Shown piece after piece: positions 16,857 through 29,753 of a DNA stretch of 64,000 nucleotides. The stretch is taken from contig JBASFK010000004.1 in NCBI GenBank assembly GCA_049652985.1, positions 251,879 to 315,878 on the forward strand, written 5' to 3'. The DNA comes from Alphaproteobacteria bacterium (GTDB lineage: Bacteria; Pseudomonadota; Alphaproteobacteria; Micavibrionales; Micavibrionaceae). The first letter of the stretch is position 1. Every line of letters starts with the position of its first letter. The position numbers and the translations under genes are program-made. The notes beneath the pieces are model-generated. The model ran no database searches, was not told where the DNA came from, and worked only from the letters and a program-made list of their open reading frames with translations.

Positions 16857-16947
16857 TGCCGCGGCTGTATCACACAGCCTTATTTTTATAGGTTAATTCA
16901 GGCGGCGCGGCAATTGCATTTTTAAGGCCCGTATTGTAGAAGTGCTC

Positions 16948-18549
16948 ATGACAAACAAAGCCCCGCAGACAGCTCCCAAAACAACAGCCAACATCCAGCG
17001 CCACGACCGCATCCTGATCCTCGATTTCGGCTCGCAGGTCACACAGCTCATTGCCAGGCGCCTCCGCGAAAACGGGGTTTACTGCGAAATCTGGCCTTTC
17101 AACCAGGCGCCCGAGGAACGGGTAAAAGGCTTCGCGCCGAAAGGCATCATCCTCTCCGGCGGCCCGGCCAGCGTGACGAAATCCGATTCCCCCCGCGCGC
17201 CGGACTACGTATTCAATCTCGGCCTGCCGCTTTTGGGAATTTGCTACGGCCAGCAGACGATGGTCCAGCAGCTCGGCGGCAAGGTCGAAGGCTCCGACCA
17301 TCAGGAATTCGGTCGCGCCTACGTCAAGGTGCAAAAACCCTGCGCGATTTTCGAAGGCATCTGGAGCCCCGGCGCCAGCGAACAGGTCTGGATGAGCCAC
17401 GGCGACCGTGTCACGAAACTCCCCTCCGGGTTCGAGGTTGTCGGAATTTCAGAGGGCGCGCCCTTCGCCGCCGTCGCCGACGACAAGCGCCATTTCTACG
17501 GCGTGCAGTTCCACCCCGAGGTGATGCACACGCCGCACGGCACGCAGCTTCTCAAAAATTTCACGCATTTAGTGTGCGGCTGCAAGGGCGACTGGACCAT
17601 GGCGGCGTTCCGCGAAGAAGCCGTCGCGAAAATCCGCAAGCAGGTCGGCAAGGGCAAAGTGATCTGCGGCCTGTCGGGCGGCGTGGACTCGAGCGTTACC
17701 GCCGTGCTGCTGCACGAGGCGATCGGCGACCAGCTGACATGCATTTATGTCGATACCGGCCTGATGCGCGCGAATGAAAGCAAACAGGTCGTCGACATGT
17801 TCCGCGGCGCTTACAACATTCCCCTCGTCCATGAGGACGCGAGCGAGCGGTTCCTGAACGGCCTCGAGGGCATCTCCGAGCCGGAAATGAAACGCAAACT
17901 CATCGGCGCGATGTTCATCGACGTGTTCGAAAAACTCACCAAAGAAGCCGGGCAGGCGGAATTCCTCGCGCAGGGCACGCTGTACCCGGATGTGATCGAA
18001 AGCGTGTCGTTCACGGGTGGCCCGAGCGTCACGATCAAAAGCCACCACAATGTCGGCGGCCTGCCCGAGACGATGAAACTGAAACTGGTTGAGCCGCTCC
18101 GCGAACTGTTCAAGGACGAAGTGAGGGCGCTGGGCCGCGAGCTTGGCATGCCCGAGGAATTCATCAAGCGCCACCCGTTCCCCGGCCCCGGCCTCGCGAT
18201 CCGCATTCCCGGCGAAATCACGCGTGAGAAGCTCGAAATTTTGCGCAAGGCCGACACGGTCTATCTCGAGGAAATCCGCAACGCCGGTCTGTACGACGCG
18301 ATCTGGCAGGCCTTCGCCGTGCTGCTCCCGGTCAAAACCGTCGGCGTCATGGGCGATGACAGGACGTATGATTTCGTCTGCGCGCTCCGCGCCGTGACCA
18401 GCACCGACGGCATGACGGCGGATTCATACCCGTTCAGCCACGATTTCCTCTCCCGCGTCGCCACGCGCATCATCAACGAAGTGCGCGGCATCAACCGCGT
18501 CGTCTATGACGTGACGTCCAAGCCCCCGGGGACGATTGAGTGGGAATAG
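16948..18549 (+). CDS. guaA: GMP synthase (glutamine-hydrolysing)
   Basis: GATase domain (ILILDFGSQ...GICYG) plus ATP-PPase SGGVDSSV. Ends ...[11 protein letters not shown]. Start at ATG 16948. Confidence 0.97.
18530..18549 (+). repeat. att core copy 1 (the functional guaA terminus, ACG ATT GAG TGG GAA TAG)
   Basis: GGACGATTGAGTGGGAATA recurs at 28113-28131 (18/19 identical). GACGATTGAGTGGGA recurs at 28551-28565 (15/15 identical). Confidence 0.85.
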
Positions 18550-18611
18550 TTATTTTCCAAAAAATAACTAATAACTAGTTGATATTAAACAAAACTAGCA
18601 ATAATCTGTTC

Positions 18612-18632
18612 ACTACAAACTAACTGTAAACT
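18612..18632 (+). promoter_or_regulatory. Candidate arm-type integrase-binding motifs (ACTACAAAC, CTGTAAACT)
   Basis: The same two 9-mers occur adjacently in both distal arms: CTGYAAACTTACTACAAAC at 28054-28072 and 28491-28509. Confidence 0.4.
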
Positions 18633-18672
18633 CTGATATAATTCGGGCAGTTAGCTTTTGGGCCGAGTGAAC

Positions 18673-19983
18673 ATGCAGTCAAAAAAACGGATTATTGTGA
18701 ACAATCAAAGCCTCAGCATTCAAAAACCTGCCGTCAGCCGCAAGAAGCGTATGAAAAAAGACAACTCCCATCGAATTGTTGATGAGGTCGAAATATTGGA
18801 TGGCGAGGTTAAAGTAATCCGTACGACCAAAAGTGGACAATTTTGGTCCATGTCTTGTTGGCTACGTGAAGAAGGCAAGTGCTATCGGCGTTCATTAAGA
18901 ACAAGAAATCTTGACGAAGCTAAGCAGTTAGCCCGCGACCAATATATTCAAATTAAAGGCGATCTTAAATCAGGTAACAGGATTTTTACGAAGACAGCCG
19001 AAGAACTTGTTCAGGATTTTATCAACCATAAAACTGAAGAGGCAAAAGCAGGTCTTATTACTGAAGGACGTGTTCAAACCATCAGTATATCTTTAAATCG
19101 TTGGTTTTTAAAATATGTCGGTCATACAAAAAAACTCGACAAAATTACGCGACATGATTTTAAAGAATATTTTATATGGCGCAGGAAGCATGCTCCTGAT
19201 GTACGAAATTCAACGCTAACCAATGATCGTGCGCTTATCTCCTCGTTATTTAAATACGGCATTTCACATGGCTATTTAAAGTTTGAGCAGGCCCCGATCT
19301 TCCCTAAATTATCGATTAAAAAGGCTGATGTTGAACGTCGTGATGACCTTACTTTGGCAGAATGGCAACAGATGTTTCGGGCATTTCCAAGTTGGATCAA
19401 AAAATCAAAAGATGAAAAAGAGAAAGAACAGCGTCTCTTTATAAAAGATTTCTTGGTAATAGCCGCTAATACAGGCTTAAGGTTTGGCGAACTAAGAAAA
19501 TTAAAATGGAATATGATTAGAACGTATCAAGCAAAGCGCACAGGCCATCATATACACGTAGAAATTTCGGTTCCTCCCGATACAAAGACAGGGCCAAGAA
19601 CAGCAATCGGGCAAAGAGGAGATGTCTTTGACCGTATTAAAAAACTTTCAAAATTTACTAAGCCTAATGATTGGGTTTTCGTGGATAATGAAACTGGAGA
19701 TCAAATACATAAGAAGGTCTATTACAAGCAATGGCCGCTGCTTTTAAAAGAAAGCAAGCTATCGGATAGTAATAAAAATCTGACGTATTATTCCTTAAGA
19801 CACACCTACATCACATTCAGATTAATCGCTGAAACTAATATATTTTTCCTCGCTAAAAACGTAGGAACAAGTGTCCGGATGATCGAAAATCACTATGAAC
19901 ATGTGAAAACAGATGAGATGAGGCGCGAACTTACAAAATCTAAAAAACGTGATGAAGCTACAAAAATTTTGATAGGGGACTAA
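18673..19983 (+). CDS. int: Tyrosine-type site-specific integrase
   Basis: C-terminal catalytic motifs TGLRFGELRKLKW, YSLRHTYITF and MIENHYEHV. It sits next to the att site at guaA. ATG 18673 preferred over TTG 18658. Confidence 0.9.
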   Translation: MQSKKRIIVNNQSLSIQKPAVSRKKRMKKDNSHRIVDEVEILDGEVKVIRTTKSGQFWSMSCWLREEGKCYRRSLRTRNLDEAKQLARDQYIQIKGDLKSGNRIFTKTAEELVQDFINHKTEEAKAGLITEGRVQTISISLNRWFLKYVGHTKKLDKITRHDFKEYFIWRRKHAPDVRNSTLTNDRALISSLFKYGISHGYLKFEQAPIFPKLSIKKADVERRDDLTLAEWQQMFRAFPSWIKKSKDEKEKEQRLFIKDFLVIAANTGLRFGELRKLKWNMIRTYQAKRTGHHIHVEISVPPDTKTGPRTAIGQRGDVFDRIKKLSKFTKPNDWVFVDNETGDQIHKKVYYKQWPLLLKESKLSDSNKNLTYYSLRHTYITFRLIAETNIFFLAKNVGTSVRMIENHYEHVKTDEMRRELTKSKKRDEATKILIGD

Positions 19984-20008
19984 AATTTAGTTTTAGTTAT
20001 AGGATAAG

Positions 20009-21586
20009 ATGACGTTAGAAATAGTCCCACAAAATGCTCGCTTTACACCTATCAATTTATCTAATTTCATTGAGCATTTAAGAAGACATCAGCAAAAATC
20101 TATAATAAGTAGTGGTTCGTACTTATGTTGGGAAGCGTTTAGAAATCCAGAATTTAAATCTAAGTTGTCATCGCAGCTTCAGCTTATAGAATCTTATGCA
20201 CCCAAAATAATACTCCTAGCTTTAGCAACTGCAAATAATCAGAGAAATCTGACTGTAAATAATGAAGAATTCTATAATTTGTGTAGCAGTTTTCTTCATA
20301 TACGCACTCCTATTTCCGATAAACCTTTTTTGGATTTAGAAGCTAAAAAAATTACTGAAGAGTTAAATGCTGTATGCACAAAAAAGGGCAATATTCCTGT
20401 TGAAAGAATTCATGAAGAATTAATAAGAGCTAGCTGTTCGATAATGTTTATATCTCGAGGGGTCACTGCGCAGCATCGTAATTTTAAAATGAGTTTGGAG
20501 GAAATGTTTAGAGATTATCTCATTATTAAGCACATTGATTCTCAAACTTCTAATGAAGCATCTCGAATTTTAAAGAATATATTTGGTATCGATACACTAC
20601 AGATATTTCGCTCAGCTTTTGGTCTGTTTTCTGTAGCTAATGATACTAATCGAAATGGTTCTCTGAATTTCGGAACGTTAACTTGTGATGTTGCTTTAAC
20701 TGACCGTTTGAAAATAGATCTAACAACATGTCTTTCAGTGGCCACAAACACTTCCTATAAAGAAAGCGATTTGCGCGAGAACTGGCTTAATAAGGAAGTT
20801 CTTTCGGAACATGAGCTTTATCAGTCTTATGCTCCCGATCCCTTATCCTATAATCCTATCATTCACAGAGATAGATCAGTATTAGAGAATCAATTCTTAA
20901 TTCCATCGCCTGGCTTATTCTTTCGAGGCTTTCGGCAATCCCTATTCTCCATTCTTTATCAAAATGCTTCGAATAAAGGAGATATGGGAAGACAAATAGG
21001 CAATGCAATAGAAACTCACATTGAAGTAGCCTTAAAAAGCATTTTTTCGAAAGATCGAGTAACAAAAATTCAAAGCGATGAAAGACAAGCAGATTTTTTA
21101 ATTCAGCTCGAAAAAATCGATCTAATAATCGAGATCAAATCAATGATTGGAGGTATTTCAGATAAATTTGTTATGCGACCAGATCACACTGCTAAAATGT
21201 GGAATCGTCTTTATAGTGCATGTACACAATGTGCATCTTCATTAAAAACGGACGGCACAAAAAATAAACCAATCATTCCTATTATTTTAATCGCAGACCA
21301 TATCACAGCGGAACATTTACCCTTTGATCATTATGCATTCCATGCGGGCCTATATAAAGACTCAGGCATCAATGCGATTGAATATATTTCATGGAATTCT
21401 TTAGAGGATATTCTTTCGAAAACATCTATTGCCGAATTTGAAAAGGCATTATTGAAAAAATGGAAGGATCCAGCAAGAGTTACAGTCGGTACTTCAATGG
21501 CTTTAGACTTAAACAGAGATACACCTGCACATGAATATCAATATCTAAAAGATGCAGAAGTAGAAATTTTTATGAGAGAAATATAA
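20009..21586 (+). CDS. Unknown N-terminal domain fused to a C-terminal PD-(D/E)xK-type nuclease motif set (putative)
   Basis: 525 aa. Ordered motifs GNAIETHIEVAL (E335), QADFLI (D362) and LIIEIKS (E375-x-K377). The first ~330 aa have no recognised motif. Confidence 0.5.
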   Translation: MTLEIVPQNARFTPINLSNFIEHLRRHQQKSIISSGSYLCWEAFRNPEFKSKLSSQLQLIESYAPKIILLALATANNQRNLTVNNEEFYNLCSSFLHIRTPISDKPFLDLEAKKITEELNAVCTKKGNIPVERIHEELIRASCSIMFISRGVTAQHRNFKMSLEEMFRDYLIIKHIDSQTSNEASRILKNIFGIDTLQIFRSAFGLFSVANDTNRNGSLNFGTLTCDVALTDRLKIDLTTCLSVATNTSYKESDLRENWLNKEVLSEHELYQSYAPDPLSYNPIIHRDRSVLENQFLIPSPGLFFRGFRQSLFSILYQNASNKGDMGRQIGNAIETHIEVALKSIFSKDRVTKIQSDERQADFLIQLEKIDLIIEIKSMIGGISDKFVMRPDHTAKMWNRLYSACTQCASSLKTDGTKNKPIIPIILIADHITAEHLPFDHYAFHAGLYKDSGINAIEYISWNSLEDILSKTSIAEFEKALLKKWKDPARVTVGTSMALDLNRDTPAHEYQYLKDAEVEIFMREI

Positions 21587-22293
21587 TGTTTAATAAAGCA
21601 GATATTGATGCAGCAGAATTAGATTGGAAAGACGCAGACGAATTTAACGAATCGTTATCAAAGTTAAAAAAAGGCCAAGTTAAGTTCATAAAGGTTGAAG
21701 GTGATCTTGCTCGATCAAAACTCGCTTGGAAAATAGCAACTTATTCTGAGGCTATACGCTATCGATTAATAGAGGTAACGGAGGCATGTATTGATGAATG
21801 GCAAAAAGAACGTTTTGTCGCATGTTTTATCATGGCGAGAGTAATAATAGAAACTGTTGCGGCATTATATGAATTGGAACATCAATTACAAAAACTATTA
21901 GCTAATAAAGATCTGGATGCGATCGACGCAATGATAATGAAGAGAACATTCGGCACAAGACTAGCTGACTTGTTCGGCGGTAAAAAAGCTTATGAAGCTG
22001 TAAGTGTTCTCACTACTATTGATAAATTAGATAAATTTCTTAAAGGGCATGTAAGAGAAGCTTATGATCGTCTCTCTGAATATACGCACACAAATTATAT
22101 GGGTGTTTGTAGTTCGTACGAAAAAATTGATTACAAATACGGAGACGTGACGTATGGTAATCAGAATACTAAGCACAATGTGTTCATGCGACTGCAGGGT
22201 GAGTTTGGTCTTCTAGAGCTGGCTAATATCACATTTGAGAAAATTAAGTCGCATGTTAAGGCAACTGCTGATCTTCAGCATGAACTAGATTAG
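21586..22293 (+). CDS. Hypothetical helical protein with an Rx5H (HEPN-like) motif, translationally coupled to the upstream gene
   Basis: The ATG overlaps the upstream stop (ATAATG). AYDRLSEYTH contains R162-x5-H168. The HEPN assignment is tentative. Confidence 0.35.
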   Translation: MFNKADIDAAELDWKDADEFNESLSKLKKGQVKFIKVEGDLARSKLAWKIATYSEAIRYRLIEVTEACIDEWQKERFVACFIMARVIIETVAALYELEHQLQKLLANKDLDAIDAMIMKRTFGTRLADLFGGKKAYEAVSVLTTIDKLDKFLKGHVREAYDRLSEYTHTNYMGVCSSYEKIDYKYGDVTYGNQNTKHNVFMRLQGEFGLLELANITFEKIKSHVKATADLQHELD

Positions 22294-22493
22294 ATAATCA
22301 AATCTTTCAATTCACAATCTAAAGCATCTGCAATCGAAACTAACGACTTGATTGTGACATTCATTTTTCCATTTTCAATTTCCGAGAGATAGCTTCGATC
22401 AATCTGCGCTAACCCACATAAGTCTTCTTGCGTAAGATTCTGCTTCTTTCGCAGTTTTACGATATTTTTCCCTATGATCTTTAGCTCTTTCAT
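22290..22493 (-). CDS. XRE-family (Cro/CI-type) helix-turn-helix regulator
   Basis: 67 aa. LRKKQNLTQEDLCGLAQIDRSYLSEIENGKMNVTIKSLVSIADAL is a canonical HTH_XRE sequence. Confidence 0.85.
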   Translation of the reverse strand: MKELKIIGKNIVKLRKKQNLTQEDLCGLAQIDRSYLSEIENGKMNVTIKSLVSIADALDCELKDLII

Positions 22494-22500
22494 AGAGAAA

Positions 22501-22549
22501 TTATGTTGTTTTTAACCCACAAAGACCGTAGGTTATAACCAACATAATG
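22501..22549. promoter_or_regulatory. Candidate operator in the divergent XRE / 22561 promoter region
   Basis: Inverted repeat ATTATGTTG (22501-22509) / CAACATAAT (22541-22549) encloses a perfect 10-bp palindrome GGTTATAACC (22532-22541). Confidence 0.35.
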
Positions 22550-22560
22550 AAGGAGTTAGC

Positions 22561-23340
22561 ATGTTCAAAAGAGTAGGGATAGCAACAATAGCTGTGACAT
22601 TGTGCCTTTTGTCTAATCCAATTAAAGCCCAGGATTATCAAAGTGCTTTGGAATTAGTGGAAGGGGATGAATACGCTAGCTATTTCATAGCGCCAACATT
22701 TAAAGACAAAATAAAACAAGCTCTCCAAATATCTGATCAAAGCATATCACCAGAAGCTCTAAGTGTTTTGCAAAGTCTCGATGTTCGTGGCCTTAAGTTG
22801 ATGGCGACATACGAAGAAGCTCTAAGCTTCGCTAAATCCGAAAACAGCGTCTGCCAATCCATTCTAAGCAATTTTCACAGCCTATGGCATGTCATGAACA
22901 TGGATAGGAATGTAAGTGGGAAAACGACACAAGCGGATTCAAAAACAAAAGTGTCACAAAGTGCAATGTATTGTAATGGAAAAGTGACATATTTGTCATT
23001 TACACCATTAGGCCGTTTAAATGATGTGACAATGACATTGGTTTCAGAAGAAAATAATGACGAAATTCTAAAAACATTTGAACAGAAGTTATCTGGTAAA
23101 AAAATAGATACGAAATGCACAAGACGAAATCTTGGTAAATGTGAAGCCGGAATATATTTTTATAAAGACCAATTCTCTAAATTCAATTTACTATTCGAGG
23201 ATAAAGCTACTTTTAAAGATGGGAAATATTTCTATGTTTATGAGATGGAGCTTTCATCTGATTACCTTAAAAAAACAGATAACGATGCTTTAAAACAAAT
23301 CTTGGAATCTAATCAATCTAAACAAAAGACGAAGCTTTAA
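22561..23340 (+). CDS. Secreted hypothetical protein
   Basis: Signal peptide MFKRVGIATIAVTLCLLSNPIKAQD. No family recognised. Confidence 0.6.
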   Translation: MFKRVGIATIAVTLCLLSNPIKAQDYQSALELVEGDEYASYFIAPTFKDKIKQALQISDQSISPEALSVLQSLDVRGLKLMATYEEALSFAKSENSVCQSILSNFHSLWHVMNMDRNVSGKTTQADSKTKVSQSAMYCNGKVTYLSFTPLGRLNDVTMTLVSEENNDEILKTFEQKLSGKKIDTKCTRRNLGKCEAGIYFYKDQFSKFNLLFEDKATFKDGKYFYVYEMELSSDYLKKTDNDALKQILESNQSKQKTKL

Positions 23341-23355
23341 AACGGCCATAAAAAA

Positions 23356-23388
23356 AGCTGCAATAATTAACATTGCAGCTTTTCTCTT
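23356..23388 (+). terminator. Rho-independent terminator
   Basis: Stem AGCTGCAAT (23356-23364) / ATTGCAGCT (23372-23380), 7-nt loop, then TTTCTCTT. Confidence 0.65.
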
Positions 23389-23550
23389 AATTCATATTTC
23401 AGATCACTTATTTTTCATTTTCTGTTTTTGTAACTTTCAATTAAAAATTATTTTTTCAAATTTACATTTCCTATCTCTTATTCTATGTTCCTATTCATCT
23501 TTCTCTTTTCATTAAGCAATAATAAAATATTGCAGAACTCATAACGAATT

Positions 23551-23571
23551 CGGCACATCTTAATTTTTACG
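23551..23571 (+). repeat. Direct repeat copy A (CGGCAC-ATC-TTAATTTTTACG), embedded in a hairpin
   Basis: Matches 24938-24955 (CGGCAC-TTAATTTTTACG). Here the 12-mer forms the loop of the hairpin CACATC (23554-23559) / GATGTG (23571-23576). Confidence 0.55.
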
Positions 23572-23623
23572 ATGTGAGGAACGGTGCTCGGTTACTTGAA
23601 GTTTTCAGCGTAAATTGGCAGCG

Positions 23624-24100
23624 TTACTTGGAACAAAATTCACGGCTAATGATAAAAGCTCGATAATTTTGATCTTTATATTGTTCCTTTAAACAGTAAT
23701 CCAAACGTCCAGTAAAAGGTTGAATATCGATTGAACCACTTTTAACCAGCGTCTCCCATACATCAGGCGCATGCTGTTCGAAGCGTTCGATATGTTCTCG
23801 ATTAACCCTTGTTAATAGATGATAGTGAAGGTTCGACTGGATATGCTCAGGGAACGCGATGAAAAACGTTCGTTCTTCAGGTGGTTTTTTATACCAATTC
23901 GTCCCTAAAATTCTTCGGTCGATATTTGCATGAAATTTTTTAAGTTTGTCGCGGGCAGAATCCAATGTTTCGGGTCTATTAAAAACGAGCGTCATGAAAT
24001 GGGTAAAGTTTTGGCTGTCTAGCCAAACTTTGAATTTGGGGAGTAATTTTGATGGAAATATAGTGGTGGTGGTCATCAACCTATTTATGCATTGAGCCAC
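23624..24100 (-). CDS. Small rolling-circle Rep-like (HUH) protein, possibly YagK/YfjJ / inovirus gpII-like (tentative)
   Basis: 158 aa with three ordered motifs resembling RCR Rep motifs: FMTLVF (motif 1), LHYHLLT (HUH) and LDYCLKE (uxxYuxK). Confidence 0.45.
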   Translation of the reverse strand: MAQCINRLMTTTTIFPSKLLPKFKVWLDSQNFTHFMTLVFNRPETLDSARDKLKKFHANIDRRILGTNWYKKPPEERTFFIAFPEHIQSNLHYHLLTRVNREHIERFEQHAPDVWETLVKSGSIDIQPFTGRLDYCLKEQYKDQNYRAFIISREFCSK

Positions 24101-24133
24101 TTATCGCGTTAAGTTATTGATTGTCCAATAAAA

Positions 24134-24164
24134 AATGGCTTCTATTGTAATAATAGAAGCCATT
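24134..24164 (-). terminator. Hairpin terminator between 24177..24776 and the Rep-like gene
   Basis: 13-bp stem AATGGCTTCTATT (24134-24146) / AATAGAAGCCATT (24152-24164). A T-run follows on the minus strand. Confidence 0.5.
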
Positions 24165-24176
24165 TTATGTTTGTTG

Positions 24177-24776
24177 CTAAACGCTCCGAATCCATGGAAA
24201 CGAGTCGTATTCTTCATATTCTTCAAGTGTCCGTGGATTTTGACGAATAAATTGATTTAGAGACCGCTGCATCTTCTCGTTACGCTGTTCGTCAAAAATT
24301 GCCTCTAAAAGTGGATCGTAGATAGTAAGACGCGCAGGACAATTTTGGACTACATCATTCACTGTAAATTCAGTATTTTTCAATTCACTGATGTCTGTGG
24401 CAATTTTAGCATCGCGTTCCATCAGCTCATGAAGATGAAAGGCAATATACAGCTTCATACTTTTATAAAGCTTTTTGTTGGATTTTTTACACCCATTATT
24501 TGCCAACTGAACAAGTTTAATGGAAGATTTTTTATCATAATCTGAGAATTCTTGACGAGTTACATAGCGACCTGTAGTTACAATTAGCTGGTGCAGGGAC
24601 TGGGTGTAATCTGCTACTTGTTTATCAGAGAGTTTACGGATGGACTTCAGCGCATAATAAATTTCGCTGCCAAAGAAAGTTCTTACCATGCCATCGTCTA
24701 GAGTCTCGGGATTCCACACGTAGTGAATGGAATATTTGCGATTGAAGTAAATAGGTAGATTGGCCTTCATTTTCAT
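24177..24776 (-). CDS. Hypothetical protein
   Basis: 199-aa AT-rich ORF upstream of the Rep-like gene. No family recognised. Confidence 0.55.
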   Translation of the reverse strand: MKMKANLPIYFNRKYSIHYVWNPETLDDGMVRTFFGSEIYYALKSIRKLSDKQVADYTQSLHQLIVTTGRYVTRQEFSDYDKKSSIKLVQLANNGCKKSNKKLYKSMKLYIAFHLHELMERDAKIATDISELKNTEFTVNDVVQNCPARLTIYDPLLEAIFDEQRNEKMQRSLNQFIRQNPRTLEEYEEYDSFPWIRSV

Positions 24777-24937
24777 TTTTTCCTTATTTTAATTAATTTT
24801 TGCAATCGCCTTATGCGTTTGCTTCATGTCCAAATCCAAACTTCCATAACCACATGCAAAATGGTTCTCTGGTATAAAGAGAATTGGTTTGAAGTGGGAA
24901 ATGTGGTGTTGGGGGGACATGAACCTATTTATTCACG

Positions 24938-24955
24938 CGGCACTTAATTTTTACG
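24938..24955 (+). repeat. Direct repeat copy B (CGGCAC-TTAATTTTTACG)
   Basis: Same orientation as 23551-23571. Together the two copies bracket the two minus-strand genes 23624-24776. Confidence 0.55.
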
Positions 24956-24986
24956 TTTTTTTACGTAATAATATGTCGTTCTTTAG

Positions 24987-25018
24987 ACTGATTATGATAC
25001 TTTGTTATCATAATCAGT
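24987..25018. repeat. Perfect 13-6-13 palindromic site (ACTGATTATGATA-CTTTGT-TATCATAATCAGT)
   Basis: 13-bp perfect inverted arms at 24987-24999 and 25006-25018 with a 6-bp spacer. It lies 114 bp upstream of the small tyrosine recombinase gene. Confidence 0.7.
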
Positions 25019-25131
25019 GGTATATAACCCATTGATTTATAATATAATTTTAGCTCATGTGTTGCGTTGACCTTATCCCAATACATTAGGAAATTGCCTG
25101 TACTTAACGTTTTCTAATGAAAGGACAGACA

Positions 25132-25719
25132 ATGGGACTAGGTAAGCAGGCCAAGATCTTATCGAGGCATCAGCAAGCGGCTTTAATTTCGTTTTTAACG
25201 ACCACTAGACACGCCAAACGAAACCAAGTGATTTTCCTGTTATCGATTAGAGCCGGTCTTAGAGCGAAAGAAATCGCGTTTATCACCTGGTCTATGGTTT
25301 CAGATGCCGAAGGCAATATATCCGATGTTATTAATCTTCGAAATTCCGCGTCTAAAGGTAATTCTGGCGGCATAATCTGGATGAACAGCGATTTAAGGCA
25401 GGCTCTAATTGAATACCGGGCTACTCAAAACTTAATGAGTGGTAATGACAGGATCATTAAAACAGAACGCGGTGAAAACACATCAGCCCAAGTTATCGTG
25501 AATATGTTCAAGGGTTGGTACAAGAAACTGGGTTTCGAGGGGTGTTCATCACACAGCGGCCGTCGAACCTTCATTACAAACGCAGCTCGTAAAATATCGA
25601 CGGTCGGTGGTTCGATTCGAGATGTTCAAGTCCTAGCCAGACATTCATCCCTTCAAATGACCCAGAGATATATTGAATGTGATGTCGAAGCACAGAAAAA
25701 AGTGGTTCAGCTAATATAG
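25132..25719 (+). CDS. Small tyrosine recombinase (catalytic domain only)
   Basis: RAGLRAKEI, SSHSGRRTFIT, LARHSS and TQRYIE supply the R..HxxR..H..Y residues. ATG 25132 has an AAGGA RBS; an alternative ATG is at 25117. Confidence 0.85.
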   Translation: MGLGKQAKILSRHQQAALISFLTTTRHAKRNQVIFLLSIRAGLRAKEIAFITWSMVSDAEGNISDVINLRNSASKGNSGGIIWMNSDLRQALIEYRATQNLMSGNDRIIKTERGENTSAQVIVNMFKGWYKKLGFEGCSSHSGRRTFITNAARKISTVGGSIRDVQVLARHSSLQMTQRYIECDVEAQKKVVQLI

Positions 25720-25762
25720 CAAAAAATTCATTATTATTCTGAATTTATGCTATAAATTCGAA

Positions 25763-26404
25763 ATGTCAGAACAACCGAAACTTCTACCATTAATTCAAAA
25801 GAAAATAGATGAAGAAAGACAAGTTCTACTTCAACTCATAACTTCTTGGATCATGCACTTTGCTAGTGGCAAGGGCACTATAAAAACTTTCAGCGGGAAA
25901 ACCTGTTCTTGGTCAGGCACATTGTTCGAGGGGAGTTCACGAGACGTATTTTGGGGCAGATATATTGAACCATTTTTAGAAGATTGTACCGAACGTCTAA
26001 TTGATTTGGTGGTGCAAGAATCTGACAGCAATAAACTCAATCTGAAATTGGAATTATATACCTTATCAAACCATATGCGTGGTTTGTTTGCCCGAATATA
26101 CAATGAAATGGCTGAGGCTGATCAACGGATGTTGGGTATGGGACATCCTAATCAAATAGACAGAAAAGACGTTACTCAGGAAATCATAAGCATGAACCAC
26201 TATTTGGATCAGCACATTGTCATGGCTCTTAATAAACATAAGTCACGCACTTCTTTGAAAACAAAATTTATTGAAAATTTTAAAGAGCAGGCTGTTCAAA
26301 AGCTCGTAGAATATTCGATCGTAGCAATTATTTCTATTTTAGGATGGATATTTGCAAGCGAACATATCGCGGCAATCATCAACTCTCTAAGAAATAACGG
26401 GTGA
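25763..26404 (+). CDS. Hypothetical protein with a C-terminal TM helix
   Basis: 213 aa. Helical N-terminal part and one hydrophobic segment (YSIVAIISILGWIFA). No family recognised. Confidence 0.55.
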   Translation: MSEQPKLLPLIQKKIDEERQVLLQLITSWIMHFASGKGTIKTFSGKTCSWSGTLFEGSSRDVFWGRYIEPFLEDCTERLIDLVVQESDSNKLNLKLELYTLSNHMRGLFARIYNEMAEADQRMLGMGHPNQIDRKDVTQEIISMNHYLDQHIVMALNKHKSRTSLKTKFIENFKEQAVQKLVEYSIVAIISILGWIFASEHIAAIINSLRNNG

Positions 26405-26413
26405 CAGAAGAAA

Positions 26414-27229
26414 ATGAATTCAAAAGTTGATTTTAAAGCTCGCGCAAAGCAGCATCTTGCTGCTGCAAAAGAAGAATTATCGTCAGGAGATGAAAGACGT
26501 TTAAAATATGCGGCTCTTGAAATTCGTATGGCAATGGAAGCCGTAACTTACGAACGTGCTCAGGCATATATCAAGGATATCCCGCCAGAAGTTTATGAAA
26601 CTTGGCAACCTAAAAAACTGATGTTGTTTCTACTTGAGGCCGATCCTTATGCAGACCAATCTTCAACACTTTCAGTAGGAATAGAAAAAGAATATGGAGT
26701 CGAAGCCAAGGAAATGAAAACCCTTGGCACTGAGCATATTTTGTCGTTGGCAGAAATAAAAAAGAATTATGATGCGATTGGTAGCTATCTTCATATGCCA
26801 ACGTATAAACAACTTCAGGAGGCTAAACAAAACCTTTCAAGTCTCAAAGATAGATGTGAAAAAATAATTGAAAAACTAGAGAAAGTTATCAATTCCAAAA
26901 TTCATAACATAAAATTTACAGTTTTTTCCGAAGTACATTGTGTTCGATGTGAGCATCTGATTAAAAAGAATATAGCTCATCTAAAAAAGCTTGATACAAT
27001 CGAAGCCAAATGTTTGGGATGTGGTGCAACTTATTTGGTTGAGAACGCAGACAACGATCAAATTAAATGGAAACCAAAAAAATCTTTATTTAATTGCATT
27101 AACAAAGAATGTAACGAAGAAAATTCAATTTGGAACGATGAGTTAAAGCCTGGCACAATTATTCAATGTAAAGCGTGCAATGCTAATAACGAAATTGCAT
27201 TGTCTGTTGTTTTAAGAAGCACAGTATAA
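26414..27229 (+). CDS. Hypothetical protein: helical N-domain plus two C-terminal zinc-ribbon-like Cys pairs
   Basis: 271 aa. C176xxC179...C200xxC203 and C228x4C233...C252xxC255. N-domain motifs LEIRMAMEAVTYE and NYDAIGSYLH resemble those in ORF 21586..22293. Confidence 0.55.
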   Translation: MNSKVDFKARAKQHLAAAKEELSSGDERRLKYAALEIRMAMEAVTYERAQAYIKDIPPEVYETWQPKKLMLFLLEADPYADQSSTLSVGIEKEYGVEAKEMKTLGTEHILSLAEIKKNYDAIGSYLHMPTYKQLQEAKQNLSSLKDRCEKIIEKLEKVINSKIHNIKFTVFSEVHCVRCEHLIKKNIAHLKKLDTIEAKCLGCGATYLVENADNDQIKWKPKKSLFNCINKECNEENSIWNDELKPGTIIQCKACNANNEIALSVVLRSTV

Positions 27230-27257
27230 AGCCATAAAAATTAGATACCGCGAATAT

Positions 27258-27995
27258 CTAATGCAACATCTTGTATTGAAGATAAGCTCGAAAATCAGGC
27301 ATAGGCTTGTTATTAGCAAAAAATATCAGTCCGATATCAAACGAAAAAATATTTTTATATCTGTTATTGGCTATGTCTGAGTATTCGATTGTCAGTTTTA
27401 AGCTGGGAATAGGGCAGTCCAAATTCTTTGAAAGCACTGCAAAATTTATATAAAAATAATTTGAAACAAGCCAAGTATAAGCTGCAGGTACAGGTATCTT
27501 AAGGCCAGTTTGTTCGATGGAAGCTGGAAGCAGATAATCTTCGCTCCGCTCTAAGCTTGGGTTCAAATTAACTAATGCTTCGGATTTATCGCCATCTTTA
27601 AATTCTAAAAAACTGTCTAATTTTTTTATTGTGACCCTTGTCTCATTTTCTTGATTCAACTGGTTCAATTTTTGAATGAATGTGTCGAAATCAAAATCCC
27701 AAGTTAACTGTATATCTTTGGCAGCTCCATTTCCCAGATTAAATAACGATATTTCTAAATCAGGCGATTTTAGCTCTTCCAGTTCTTCGTTTTTTGAGTC
27801 GTTTAATACCCAATCACAAAAAATAGCGGACTGAAAGTAACCACTGAAAACTTGTTTGATGGGTACAATGTCAGGCTTATAGCTATGCTTCCTTTGCCTG
27901 TGCATTTCGAGCAGTGTTAACAAAGCAGCAATTGCTGCAAAAAAAGTCGCCCAATCAGCAACAAATGACGATAAATTTTCGAATGAAATAGGCAT
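27258..27995 (-). CDS. Hypothetical membrane-anchored protein
   Basis: 245 aa with an N-terminal TM helix (WATFFAAIAALLTLL). Convergent with 26414..27229. No family recognised. Confidence 0.55.
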   Translation of the reverse strand: MPISFENLSSFVADWATFFAAIAALLTLLEMHRQRKHSYKPDIVPIKQVFSGYFQSAIFCDWVLNDSKNEELEELKSPDLEISLFNLGNGAAKDIQLTWDFDFDTFIQKLNQLNQENETRVTIKKLDSFLEFKDGDKSEALVNLNPSLERSEDYLLPASIEQTGLKIPVPAAYTWLVSNYFYINFAVLSKNLDCPIPSLKLTIEYSDIANNRYKNIFSFDIGLIFFANNKPMPDFRAYLQYKMLH

Positions 27996-28053
27996 TTAAA
28001 GATGATACTTTTTATAGGGTAAGCTATCCATTCAAATTTTCTGGCAGGATAAG

Positions 28054-28132
28054 CTGCAAACTTACTACAAACAAAAATATTATGATTATAAATCAAATAA
28101 TTAGACGCATAAGGACTATTGAGTGGGAATAA
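28054..28132 (+). repeat. Island right arm plus att core copy 2 (ACT ATT GAG TGG GAA TAA)
   Basis: The 75-bp arm 28054-28128 is collinear with 28491-28565 (58/75 identical by hand), including a perfect 21-mer AAACTTACTACAAACAAAAAT. It ends in a copy of the guaA terminus. Confidence 0.8.
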
Positions 28133-28565
28133 ACGATGGAAATCAAAATTATTAATATAAAAACAGATGAAATAAAAGATTGGGATAGCTTCCATGCTGT
28201 ATTTCAAAAGGCATTTGGATTTCCTGATTTTTACGGACGTAATATGAATGCATGGATTGATTGTATGTCTTATCTTGATGAATCGGATAATGAGATGACC
28301 AACATAACAGTTAAATCAGGCGGCATAATTATATTGAATATAGAAAACTCTGCGGAATTCAAAAAACGCTGCGCAGAGCAATATGAAGCATTGATAGAAT
28401 GCTCTGCATTTGTAAATTATAGACGCATTGAAGCCGGGGAGACCCCCGTTCTTTCTCTAATTTTTTCTGGACATTATTAAAGCAATCCAACTGTAAACTT
28501 ACTACAAACAAAAATTTTTTGAAGTTAGATCAAATGTTTATAAGTGCAGAGACGATTGAGTGGGA
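28132..28565 (+). mobile_element. Mini-element or remnant between att copies 2 and 3, carrying only a barstar-like gene
   Basis: Bounded by copies of the guaA terminus. It shares its right arm with the large island. No recombinase of its own. Confidence 0.6.
28136..28480 (+). CDS. Barstar-family ribonuclease inhibitor (orphan immunity protein)
   Basis: FHAVFQKAFGFPDFYGRNMNAWIDCMSYL aligns with barstar [28 protein letters not shown]. Size (114 aa) is appropriate. Confidence 0.8.
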   Translation: MEIKIINIKTDEIKDWDSFHAVFQKAFGFPDFYGRNMNAWIDCMSYLDESDNEMTNITVKSGGIIILNIENSAEFKKRCAEQYEALIECSAFVNYRRIEAGETPVLSLIFSGHY

Positions 28566-28569
28566 GTGA
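28491..28569 (+). repeat. Second right arm plus att core copy 3 (ACG ATT GAG TGG GAG TGA)
   Basis: See 28054-28132. GACGATTGAGTGGGA is identical to 18531-18545, and the T-I-E-W-E-stop reading is retained. Confidence 0.8.
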
Positions 28570-28573
28570 TGAA

Positions 28574-29182
28574 ATGCAGAATGTTGATGTGAATCAAATT
28601 GCAATTTCTATTGCAGATAAAATCACATCAGAGCTGGATGTAAGAATTGCCTTAATTGGTGTTTTTGGTGTTGCTGTTGGTGCTTTAATTCCCGGAATTT
28701 TATCTCTTTTTGAGAAAAAAATTGGATACGCTAATGATTACTACAAAAGCATTGTCCAGCGCCGTATTGCTGCCTATGAAGAATTGGAAAATTTAATAAT
28801 CGCTTTGAAAACATCCGTAATCGACACAGATAATAAGCCATATCATCTATTATTCGCTCAAGAGGATGAAGGTAAGGCAGTTTATTTCAGAACTCAAAGT
28901 ATTATGCGCCAATCTCTCTGGCTTAGTAATAAGGCTTTAAGAAAATTAATATCTTTTGGTGACCGCATGTTTAATGCTGACCGGAAAGATATGGTTGCGT
29001 TTGCAAAAGAACATTACAAGGAGATTGCAGATTGGCGCCATGAGATTGAAAAAATTCTTGCCGCTGATATGTTAGAGCTTCACAACGTTAAAAAATTTCT
29101 GAAACAAAAAAATAAGGGCAATTCAAAATATCGTGCTCTTCATATAAAAAGCTCTAAACAAGAGTTAGAAAGTTTAGAATAA
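28574..29182 (+). CDS. Hypothetical membrane-anchored protein (AT-rich, beyond the last att copy)
   Basis: ATG 28574 (MQNVDVNQ...) with one TM helix (IALIGVFGVAVGALIPGILSLF). No family recognised. Confidence 0.5.
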   Translation: MQNVDVNQIAISIADKITSELDVRIALIGVFGVAVGALIPGILSLFEKKIGYANDYYKSIVQRRIAAYEELENLIIALKTSVIDTDNKPYHLLFAQEDEGKAVYFRTQSIMRQSLWLSNKALRKLISFGDRMFNADRKDMVAFAKEHYKEIADWRHEIEKILAADMLELHNVKKFLKQKNKGNSKYRALHIKSSKQELESLE

Positions 29183-29186
29183 TCTC

Positions 29187-29753
29187 ATGTCCCTCAAAGC
29201 AAAATGGCAGGATTGGTTCGATAAGACGGTCGAGGAGTGCCTCGTCCAGAGCGAGGGCGAGCGTATCCGCGCGCAGGGAATCATCCGCGGCAAAAATCCC
29301 GACTTCACCGTCCAGTATAAAATCACGATGAACGATCAATGGGTGTTCCGCGAGGCGGAAATCCAGAGCAAGGACGCGGACGACAAGGGCAAGCAGATTT
29401 TCCTCAGCTCCGACGGCAACGGCAGATGGACCGATTACAAGAACCAGCGCATCGAGGGGCTGGAAGAAGCGCGCGACATCGATTTCATCCTGACGCCCTT
29501 GACCAACACCCTGCCGATCAAGCGCCTTCACCTGACACGCGGCGAGAGTGCCGACATCACCATCGCCAGCATTTCATTTCCCGCGCTTGAAGTGACACCT
29601 GACACGCAGCGCTACACCTGCATCGAGCCTGGCAGGCTGTACCGTTTTGAGTCACTGTCCTCGGATTTCACGCAGGATATCGAGTTCGACGAGGGCGGCC
29701 TCGTTTCCAATTACCCGCAGATGTTCAAGCGAGTGAAATTGGGCAGGGATTAA
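29187..29753 (+). CDS. Putative glycolipid-binding domain (DUF1089-like) protein
   Basis: DIDFILTPLTNTLPIKRLHL...QRYTCIEPGRLYRFES...GGLVSNYPQMFKRV matches my recollection of this family. G+C returns to the host level here. Confidence 0.6.
   Translation: MSLKAKWQDWFDKTVEECLVQSEGERIRAQGIIRGKNPDFTVQYKITMNDQWVFREAEIQSKDADDKGKQIFLSSDGNGRWTDYKNQRIEGLEEARDIDFILTPLTNTLPIKRLHLTRGESADITIASISFPALEVTPDTQRYTCIEPGRLYRFESLSSDFTQDIEFDEGGLVSNYPQMFKRVKLGRD

Follow-up and report, generated by a model that had tools for sequence, protein, structure and literature searches.

Does a gene for a rolling-circle-type replication initiator (Rep) in a bacterial chromosome belong to a small mobile unit of its own, or does it serve the larger element in which it lies? 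This question is raised by a stretch of 64,000 nucleotides (nt) from an Alphaproteobacteria bacterium of the Micavibrionaceae (assembly GCA_049652985.1, contig JBASFK010000004.1, positions 251,879 to 315,878), the whole of which is referred to below as the window. An initial annotation had described a 1.4-kb two-gene unit (23551-24955), in which a Rep-like gene with an HUH motif (histidine, hydrophobic residue, histidine) and an upstream open reading frame (ORF) are bracketed by a direct repeat that was taken for a pair of nick sites. The Rep-like gene, here called rep, very probably codes for an HUH nuclease of the Rep class. It is part of a foreign genomic island integrated at the 3' end of guaA and, as judged from gene order in related loci, its conserved partner is in most relatives a divergently transcribed small recombinase, usually a tyrosine recombinase, and not the upstream ORF. 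We give an even chance to the proposal that rep is the replication initiator of the excised island and forms, together with the small recombinase, a "replicate and resolve" module.

The longest ORF on the minus strand (23624-24100, 158 amino acids [aa]) starts with a GTG codon at 24100. Its true start is likely the ATG at 24076, because the database gene call (P0001) is the 150-aa product from this codon and because the codon is directly preceded by ATAAATAGGTTGATG, a motif which is conserved in the family and is also found ahead of the start codons of relatives. The family is large: an exhaustive phmmer search resulted in 812 representative clusters at E ≤ 1e-3 and 252 at E ≤ 1e-10. Most of the proteins are 145-190 aa long, and no informative additional domain was detected in longer family members. 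Among 90 family members, E77 and Y127 are invariant while T29, N33, R69, N82, H84, H86, and K130 are near-invariant; H84-Y-H86 is invariant in a set of 19 sequences. The three motifs that had been initially annotated for the 158-aa ORF are thus present, in the order described and on conserved family residues, which additionally include E77, a glutamate seven residues ahead of the first histidine. Motif I (FMTLVF) contains T29 and is followed by N33, the HUH motif (LHYHLL) contains H84 and H86, and the YxxK motif (LDYCLKE), which is located C-terminal to the HUH motif, contains Y127 and K130.

An AlphaFold2 model computed from the 19-sequence alignment has a predicted local distance difference test score (pLDDT) of 86.5 and a predicted template modelling score (pTM) of 0.82. 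Its topology is beta-alpha-beta-beta-alpha-beta-alpha (motif I strand, helix, strand ending with E77, HUH strand, helix, strand, Y127 helix), with motif I on strand 26-31, the HUH motif on predicted strand 84-90, and the YxxK motif on helix 125-128. When this model was compared to predicted viral structures by Foldseek, 18 matches with E < 1e-3 were obtained (best E = 2.8e-7, template modelling [TM] score 0.72). The named ones are an ORF2/G2P-domain protein, a "putative Rep", a parvovirus nonstructural (NS) protein, and an uncharacterised rudivirus protein; a microvirus replication initiator is next in the list (E = 2.8e-3). The sole Pfam family matched by the protein is PF23343 (REP_ORF2-G2P; E ~9e-4), which is also matched by 52 of the 90 family members (E ≤ 0.01, best E = 1.2e-9), with Rep_1 being matched by two and Rep_N by one of them. 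The protein has no match in NCBIfam, PHROGs, or PADLOC, and a single-protein sequence search of the PDB did not return any match. When the family profile is compared to Rep68 from adeno-associated virus (AAV), the E-x6-HxH segments align without reaching significance (E = 0.33). Based on the conserved E/HUH/YxxK residues, the weak PF23343 matches, the structure model, and the structural similarity to viral Reps, we consider it very probable that the 150-aa protein is an HUH nuclease of the Rep class, as initially annotated, and predict that it nicks DNA. The family is unnamed and uncharacterised and, by its profile matches, distantly related to PF23343.

The gene guaA (16942-18549) is immediately ahead of a low-GC stretch, with a GC content of ~35% over 18550-29190 compared to ~56% in the surroundings. 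The guaA end, GGACGATTGAGTGGGAATA, recurs as an attachment (att) core, with copies at 18530, 28113, and 28550 (the third copy covering 28550-28568). We conclude that rep lies within a foreign island which is integrated at the 3' end of guaA and which has an integrase and att sites and is devoid of conjugation genes. Homologs of the 441-aa integrase accompany rep-like genes in four further loci (L006, L010, L028, and L032). One of these, L006:5316-6874, is a decayed sibling island of 1.56 kb which is located between two guaA att cores in a host with 49% GC. It comprises the guaA end, an integrase truncated to its first 262 residues (78% identical), a conserved non-coding block that is described below, a rep gene in which the N-terminus is replaced, and the second att core. 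The rep gene is single-copy in the genome and was always found in an integrase-bearing island. In a sample of 401 genomes from the phylum, the family is represented in four. Alignment-based scans turned up two loci among genome contigs and two among metagenome contigs, while viral contigs did not yield any. An empty integration site could not be recovered in two genomes from the same genus, G402 (L039) and G401 (L040). Both retain the right-flank gene and a 75-80-nt att arm and have no guaA within the flanks examined (~1.2 kb in G402, 3.1 kb in G401). The guaA site seems to be filled by other DNA in these relatives and would then be an integration hotspot.

In 10 of the 15 loci available as DNA, and also on the contig that codes for P0150, a Phage_integrase-family recombinase of ~190-200 aa, consisting of the catalytic domain only, is encoded upstream of rep and in divergent orientation. 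The two genes are directly adjacent, with a distance of 200-330 bp, in L009, L010/L011, L026/L027, and L032/L033, and they are separated by variable genes in L001, L005, L008, L028, and on the P0150 contig. In L005, L008, and L009, sequence identity to the window is 78-82% for the recombinase compared to 45-74% for Rep. A further locus, L041:95-1544, has a serine resolvase (PF00239, 243 aa) next to rep, in the position and orientation of the recombinase. This replacement by a non-homologous enzyme suggests that the task of the partner is site-specific resolution, and such a task would in turn imply a replicating circle. The perfect palindrome in the intergenic region between recombinase and rep (Table 1) is probably the recombinase site.

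The upstream ORF of the presumed two-gene unit codes for a protein of 199 aa. No homolog was found among 5.8 billion proteins, there is no family match in Pfam, NCBIfam, PHROGs, or PADLOC, and the AlphaFold2 model computed from the single sequence is unusable (pLDDT 35). It is not a conserved member of a two-gene unit. The closest relative, L009 (Rep 74% identical), has the recombinase, a 200-bp intergenic region, and rep, while the gene for the 199-aa protein is absent. In the window, the start region of rep is duplicated on either side of this gene as a 24-nt repeat with 83% identity between the copies, and the 15-nt rep-start pattern occurs twice where 0.01 occurrences are expected. Because of this duplication and because of the absence from L009, the comparison places the gene in an insertion of ~845 bp, on both sides of which the rep 5' region is found as duplicates that have diverged. 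The upstream duplicate heads a 43-aa ORF and is probably a remnant of the rep start.

Table 1. Coordinates of rep and associated features in the window
Feature	Position	Strand	Description
Low-GC island	18530..28131	+	~9.6 kb; delimited by copies of the att core from the 3' end of guaA
Island integrase	18658..19983	+	Tyrosine integrase, 441 aa; starts directly after guaA
Conserved non-coding block	23518..23623	-	Candidate origin; ~105 bp after the rep stop codon
Repeat copy C	23551..23571 (hairpin to 23576)	+	Inside a window-specific 6-bp hairpin CACATC/GATGTG, 23554-23576
rep-like gene	23624..24076	-	150 aa, likely start ATG 24076; predicted HUH endonuclease (Rep-class, single-Tyr)
rep 5' region copy A	24068..24108	-	Holds ATAAATAGGTTGATG (24074-24088) and a degenerate repeat (CGCGATAAGTGGC)
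Terminator-like hairpin	24127..24171	-	Inverted repeat after the 199-aa ORF
199-aa cargo ORF	24177..24776	-	Without detectable homologs; lineage-specific insertion between small recombinase and rep
Duplicated rep 5' region copy B	24789..24935	-	Holds ATAAATAGGTTCATG (24918-24932); heads a 43-aa ORF
Repeat copy B	24938..24955	+	~20-38 nt ahead of the duplicated rep start; ancestral promoter region of rep
Palindrome, 13-6-13	24987..25018		Perfect; recombinase-rep intergenic region; probable recombinase site; partly conserved in L009
Small tyrosine recombinase	25117..25719	+	200 aa, catalytic domain only; Pfam Phage_integrase E = 2.3e-16; divergent from rep

The non-coding block directly downstream of rep shows 72-75% nucleotide identity among the window, L009, and L006. 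For comparison, identity is 65-72% for the rep coding DNA and 63.5% for the upstream intergenic region. The block holds an inverted repeat (TTTACG/CGTAAA), the 3' arm of which is the start of copy C, the downstream copy of the direct repeat. It further holds a conserved hairpin, TGCCGAATTC-GTTAT-GAGTTCTGCA, which is followed by GCAATATTTTATTAT. A hairpin is also present at the equivalent position in L005 and L008. Its stem differs, CATGAGAG-A-CTCTCATG, and G(C/T)AATA and an AT-rich sequence come after it. The recurrence of a hairpin at this position is suggestive of a cis-acting site. Because the block is at least as conserved as the rep coding DNA, we consider it the best candidate for a replication origin, the position of which we infer from this conservation. 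When 9-mer nick motifs were searched for around rep in 13 loci, (G)CATAAATAG ahead of the start codon was the only one to emerge, and the same search downstream of rep did not reveal anything above the null. Rfam has no match in the region 22400-25300.

In the scenario that we favor, the 441-aa integrase would excise the island, and the Rep-like protein would nick a site within the conserved block that immediately follows its own gene. The circle would then replicate by the rolling-circle mode with the help of host helicase and polymerase, and the small recombinase would resolve multimers at the 13-6-13 palindrome. The repeat, with a length of 19 nt, would be a protein recognition element, occurring as copy C beside the candidate origin and as copy B in the ancestral promoter of rep, and the gene for the 199-aa protein would be cargo which arrived together with the duplication of the rep 5' region. 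Several results weigh against this scenario or against the assignments on which it builds. The score of the 150-aa protein for PF23343 (19.8-20.0 bits) is below the gathering cut-off of 27.8 bits. Foldseek matches to PDB structures are weak, none having E ≤ 1e-3 (best E = 8e-3), and NS1 from minute virus of mice (MVM) as well as the Reps from AAV, tomato yellow leaf curl virus (TYLCV), and porcine circovirus 2 (PCV2) are interspersed with generic ferredoxin-like folds. The origin assignment is based on three distinct sequences. These show one compensatory change in the inverted repeat, a result which is not significant for so few sequences (attained in 157 of 500 shuffles), and the direct repeat is the least conserved portion of the block. 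Neither a helicase nor a single-strand-origin feature was identified. Relatives of the Rep-like protein were not found in phage records or in IMG/VR contigs, and the only match from plasmids is a weak one to an Azospirillum megaplasmid, so that no autonomous replicon ties the family to replication.

The direct repeat itself, CGGCAC(ATC)TTAATTTTTACG, is present as initially annotated, with 19 nt including a 3-nt indel and 13 nt being exact. The exact 13-mer CTTAATTTTTACG occurs at only these two sites in the window, where 0.13 occurrences are expected, and also at only these two sites across the 2.0-Mb genome, so that it is not an AT-rich motif of the scattered kind, which the initial annotation had named as a result that would refute its idea. 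Statistical significance is moderate because the local base composition is strongly skewed. When the 1.8-kb region was simulated 500 times with a Markov model, 36 of the simulations contained an exact direct repeat of 13 nt. The gapped match of 18-19 nt is attained by 2 of 1000 simulated intergenic pairs with a composition-aware score and in 17 of 300 simulations with a lenient one. Around copy C, the 6-bp hairpin stem is present as described (CACATC 23554-23559, GATGTG 23571-23576), but the loop, given as 12 nt in the initial annotation, consists of 11 nt (TTAATTTTTAC). Beside copy B, ACGTAAAAA(A) is duplicated in tandem at 24953-24976, resulting in two CGTAAAAA units which are 10 nt apart; a third CGTAAAAA unit is found inside copy C, and the arrangement is iteron-like.

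In the model of the initial annotation, the interval 23551-24955 would be a rolling-circle replicon in integrated form, or a transposable HUH unit of the ori/ter type with the direct-repeat nick sites as its ends. This would fit a genuine repeat which is unique in the genome and in direct orientation, has one copy in a hairpin loop, and encloses an intact HUH gene. We nevertheless consider this very unlikely. The sequences on both flanks of copy C align with L009 and L006/L007, and the alignment with L009 proceeds from the recombinase start via the palindrome and copy B to a rep start, which in the window is the duplicated one. Because the homology of relatives continues across each copy, neither is a junction between element and target, and from these alignments the copies do not delimit a mobile unit of 1.4 kb. 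The insertion with the 199-aa ORF is private. None of the relatives has the repeat pair: no significant pair of upstream and downstream repeats was detected in L009, L008, L005, or L001, the alignment in L010 is borderline and gappy (15 of 300 shuffles), and the loop motif TAATTTTTAC was not found in the eight loci examined for it. The hairpin is no more stable than shuffled sequence (z = -1.1), and its stem is not conserved in L009 or L006, where the 13-mer is only partly conserved. Finally, there is one copy per genome and never one in another context. Somewhat better placed, but still unlikely in our view, is an explanation in which the repeat has no role in nicking and is a promoter or operator element (bound by the XRE protein of the island or by Rep as autorepressor), a by-product of the duplication and insertion, or partly due to chance, and in which the Rep-like protein may have been domesticated for DNA binding. 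It is consistent with the moderate significance of the repeat, with three other exact 13-mer repeats in the island, and with the position of copy B, which relative to the duplicated rep start is about -20 to -38. At the equivalent position ahead of the real rep, the repeat is found in degenerate form (CGCGATAAGTGGC). On the other side, the retention of catalytic residues across more than 800 clusters argues for retained catalysis, and copy C is inside a block which is under apparent constraint.

A similarly low probability is assigned to the principal rival of our scenario, the Rep-like protein being a mobilisation relaxase which nicks an origin of transfer (oriT) in the block or in the intergenic region, with the island being an integrative mobilizable element (IME) that is moved by a conjugative helper element. 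In favor of this reading, the island has an integrase and att sites and no conjugation genes, and the family is nearly absent from phages, IMG/VR, and plasmids. According to two publications, proteins of the rolling-circle initiator type act as relaxases in streptococcal IMEs (PMC5704250, PMC7563843). Against this reading, neither a helper element nor a coupling protein is visible, and a resolvase-type partner points to multimer resolution of a replicon. Moreover, the tyrosine precedes the HUH motif in classical HUH relaxases, while the motif order found here, HUH and then tyrosine, is that of Reps. Our favored scenario, replication of the excised island by Rep, could be extended by a role in gene capture, a very speculative addition to which we give little credence. 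The Rep sites (copies B and C and the degenerate version in copy A) would then double as cargo insertion points by Rep-mediated strand transfer, making rep and the catalytic-domain-only recombinase an as yet undescribed "replicate-resolve-and-capture" platform for small genomic islands. This would explain why variable genes are massed between recombinase and rep and why the gene for the 199-aa protein is accompanied by a duplicated rep 5' region.

Among characterised systems, PF23343 represents the HUH domain of the replication initiators ORF2 from Spiroplasma virus and G2P from inoviruses. The Rep-like protein shares the motif order with these and has an ORF2/G2P-domain protein among its Foldseek matches. 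It differs by its sub-cut-off score, by a length of only 150 aa without extra domains, and by being encoded on a chromosomal island. The nuclease domains of AAV Rep, parvovirus NS1, and the Reps of circular Rep-encoding single-stranded DNA (CRESS) viruses, which are among the best structural neighbors in PDB and viral structures, show the same E-x6-H-u-H ligand spacing and have the tyrosine on a later helix. In contrast to them, the 150-aa protein lacks a superfamily 3 (SF3) helicase domain, and sequence similarity is not significant, as described above. E. coli YfjJ and YagK (PF11726) from islands CP4-57 and CP4-6 are also small HYHL proteins in integrase-bearing islands, and YfjJ also matches PF23343 (E = 7e-7). 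The kinship to YagK/YfjJ that had been suggested initially is nevertheless rejected: neither the protein nor any of its 90 relatives matches PF11726, whereas YfjJ itself does so with E = 1e-63, and hhalign returned a probability of 5% with only the HYHL/HUH segment being aligned. The neighbors of yfjJ are alpA and yfjI and not a small recombinase. We did not find functional work on YagK/YfjJ in the literature.

Transposases of the IS200/IS605 (TnpA) and IS91/ISCR types are HUH enzymes as well, and IS91 has its ori and ter ends in direct orientation. A rolling-circle transposon of either type was rejected on account of the single copy, the lack of a match to a transposase family, the fixed island, and the collinear flanks. 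HUH initiators in integrative elements are already known. [quoted passage not shown] Replicons of their own are found in SGI1 and related islands, and SGI1 has rep-oriV as well as the tyrosine-recombinase-like protein MpsA, with the cis site oriT directly upstream (PMC8409611). The guaA island resembles AICEs and SGI1 in combining an integrase and att sites with its own candidate replication initiator. It differs from them in that the initiator belongs to an unrelated family, in that transfer genes are missing, and in that the element is far smaller. Unlike MpsA, the recombinase partner is exchangeable for a serine resolvase. That proteins of this family are systematically paired with a minimal recombinase on small islands is undescribed in the literature that we searched.

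Most genomic islands have no known means of persisting or spreading after excision. Here, a family of more than 800 clusters of stand-alone HUH nucleases of about 150 aa is tied to small integrase-bearing islands and to a resolvase-type recombinase. If these proteins initiate replication, many small islands that carry defence genes or other cargo would be short-lived rolling-circle replicons, and the pairing would be a compact initiator-plus-site system that is easily tested in vitro. The idea of a self-mobile unit of 1.4 kb at this locus is also corrected.

A few observations concern the surroundings of rep. In 8 of 13 loci, the start codon of rep is directly preceded by the motif (G)CATAAATAG(G)TT.ATG, compared to a null maximum of 5-6. 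Its sites include the two copies in the window (Table 1), L005:8124-8138, and L008:7133-7147. A Shine-Dalgarno sequence at normal spacing is not found in this region, and the motif may be the -10 box of a leaderless transcript or a protein-binding site. A promoter scan was uninformative (6 sites vs. 6.7 expected). Locus L005 is from a metagenome-assembled genome labelled Pseudobdellovibrionaceae. Its recombinase (L005:3789-4376) is 82% and its 67-aa XRE protein (L005:9197-9397) 85% identical to the counterparts in the window. Both are far more similar than Rep from L005, which is 49% identical (about 47% being the value for L005 and L008 together), and the comparison of L005 with the window points to a mosaic exchange of backbone modules between distant hosts. 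On its downstream side, rep is separated from a convergent 259-aa ORF by a perfect hairpin with a 12-bp stem (23353-23383), which is probably a bidirectional terminator. Between rep and this hairpin, a non-coding tract is left which has a length of 240 bp and a GC content of 26-28%.

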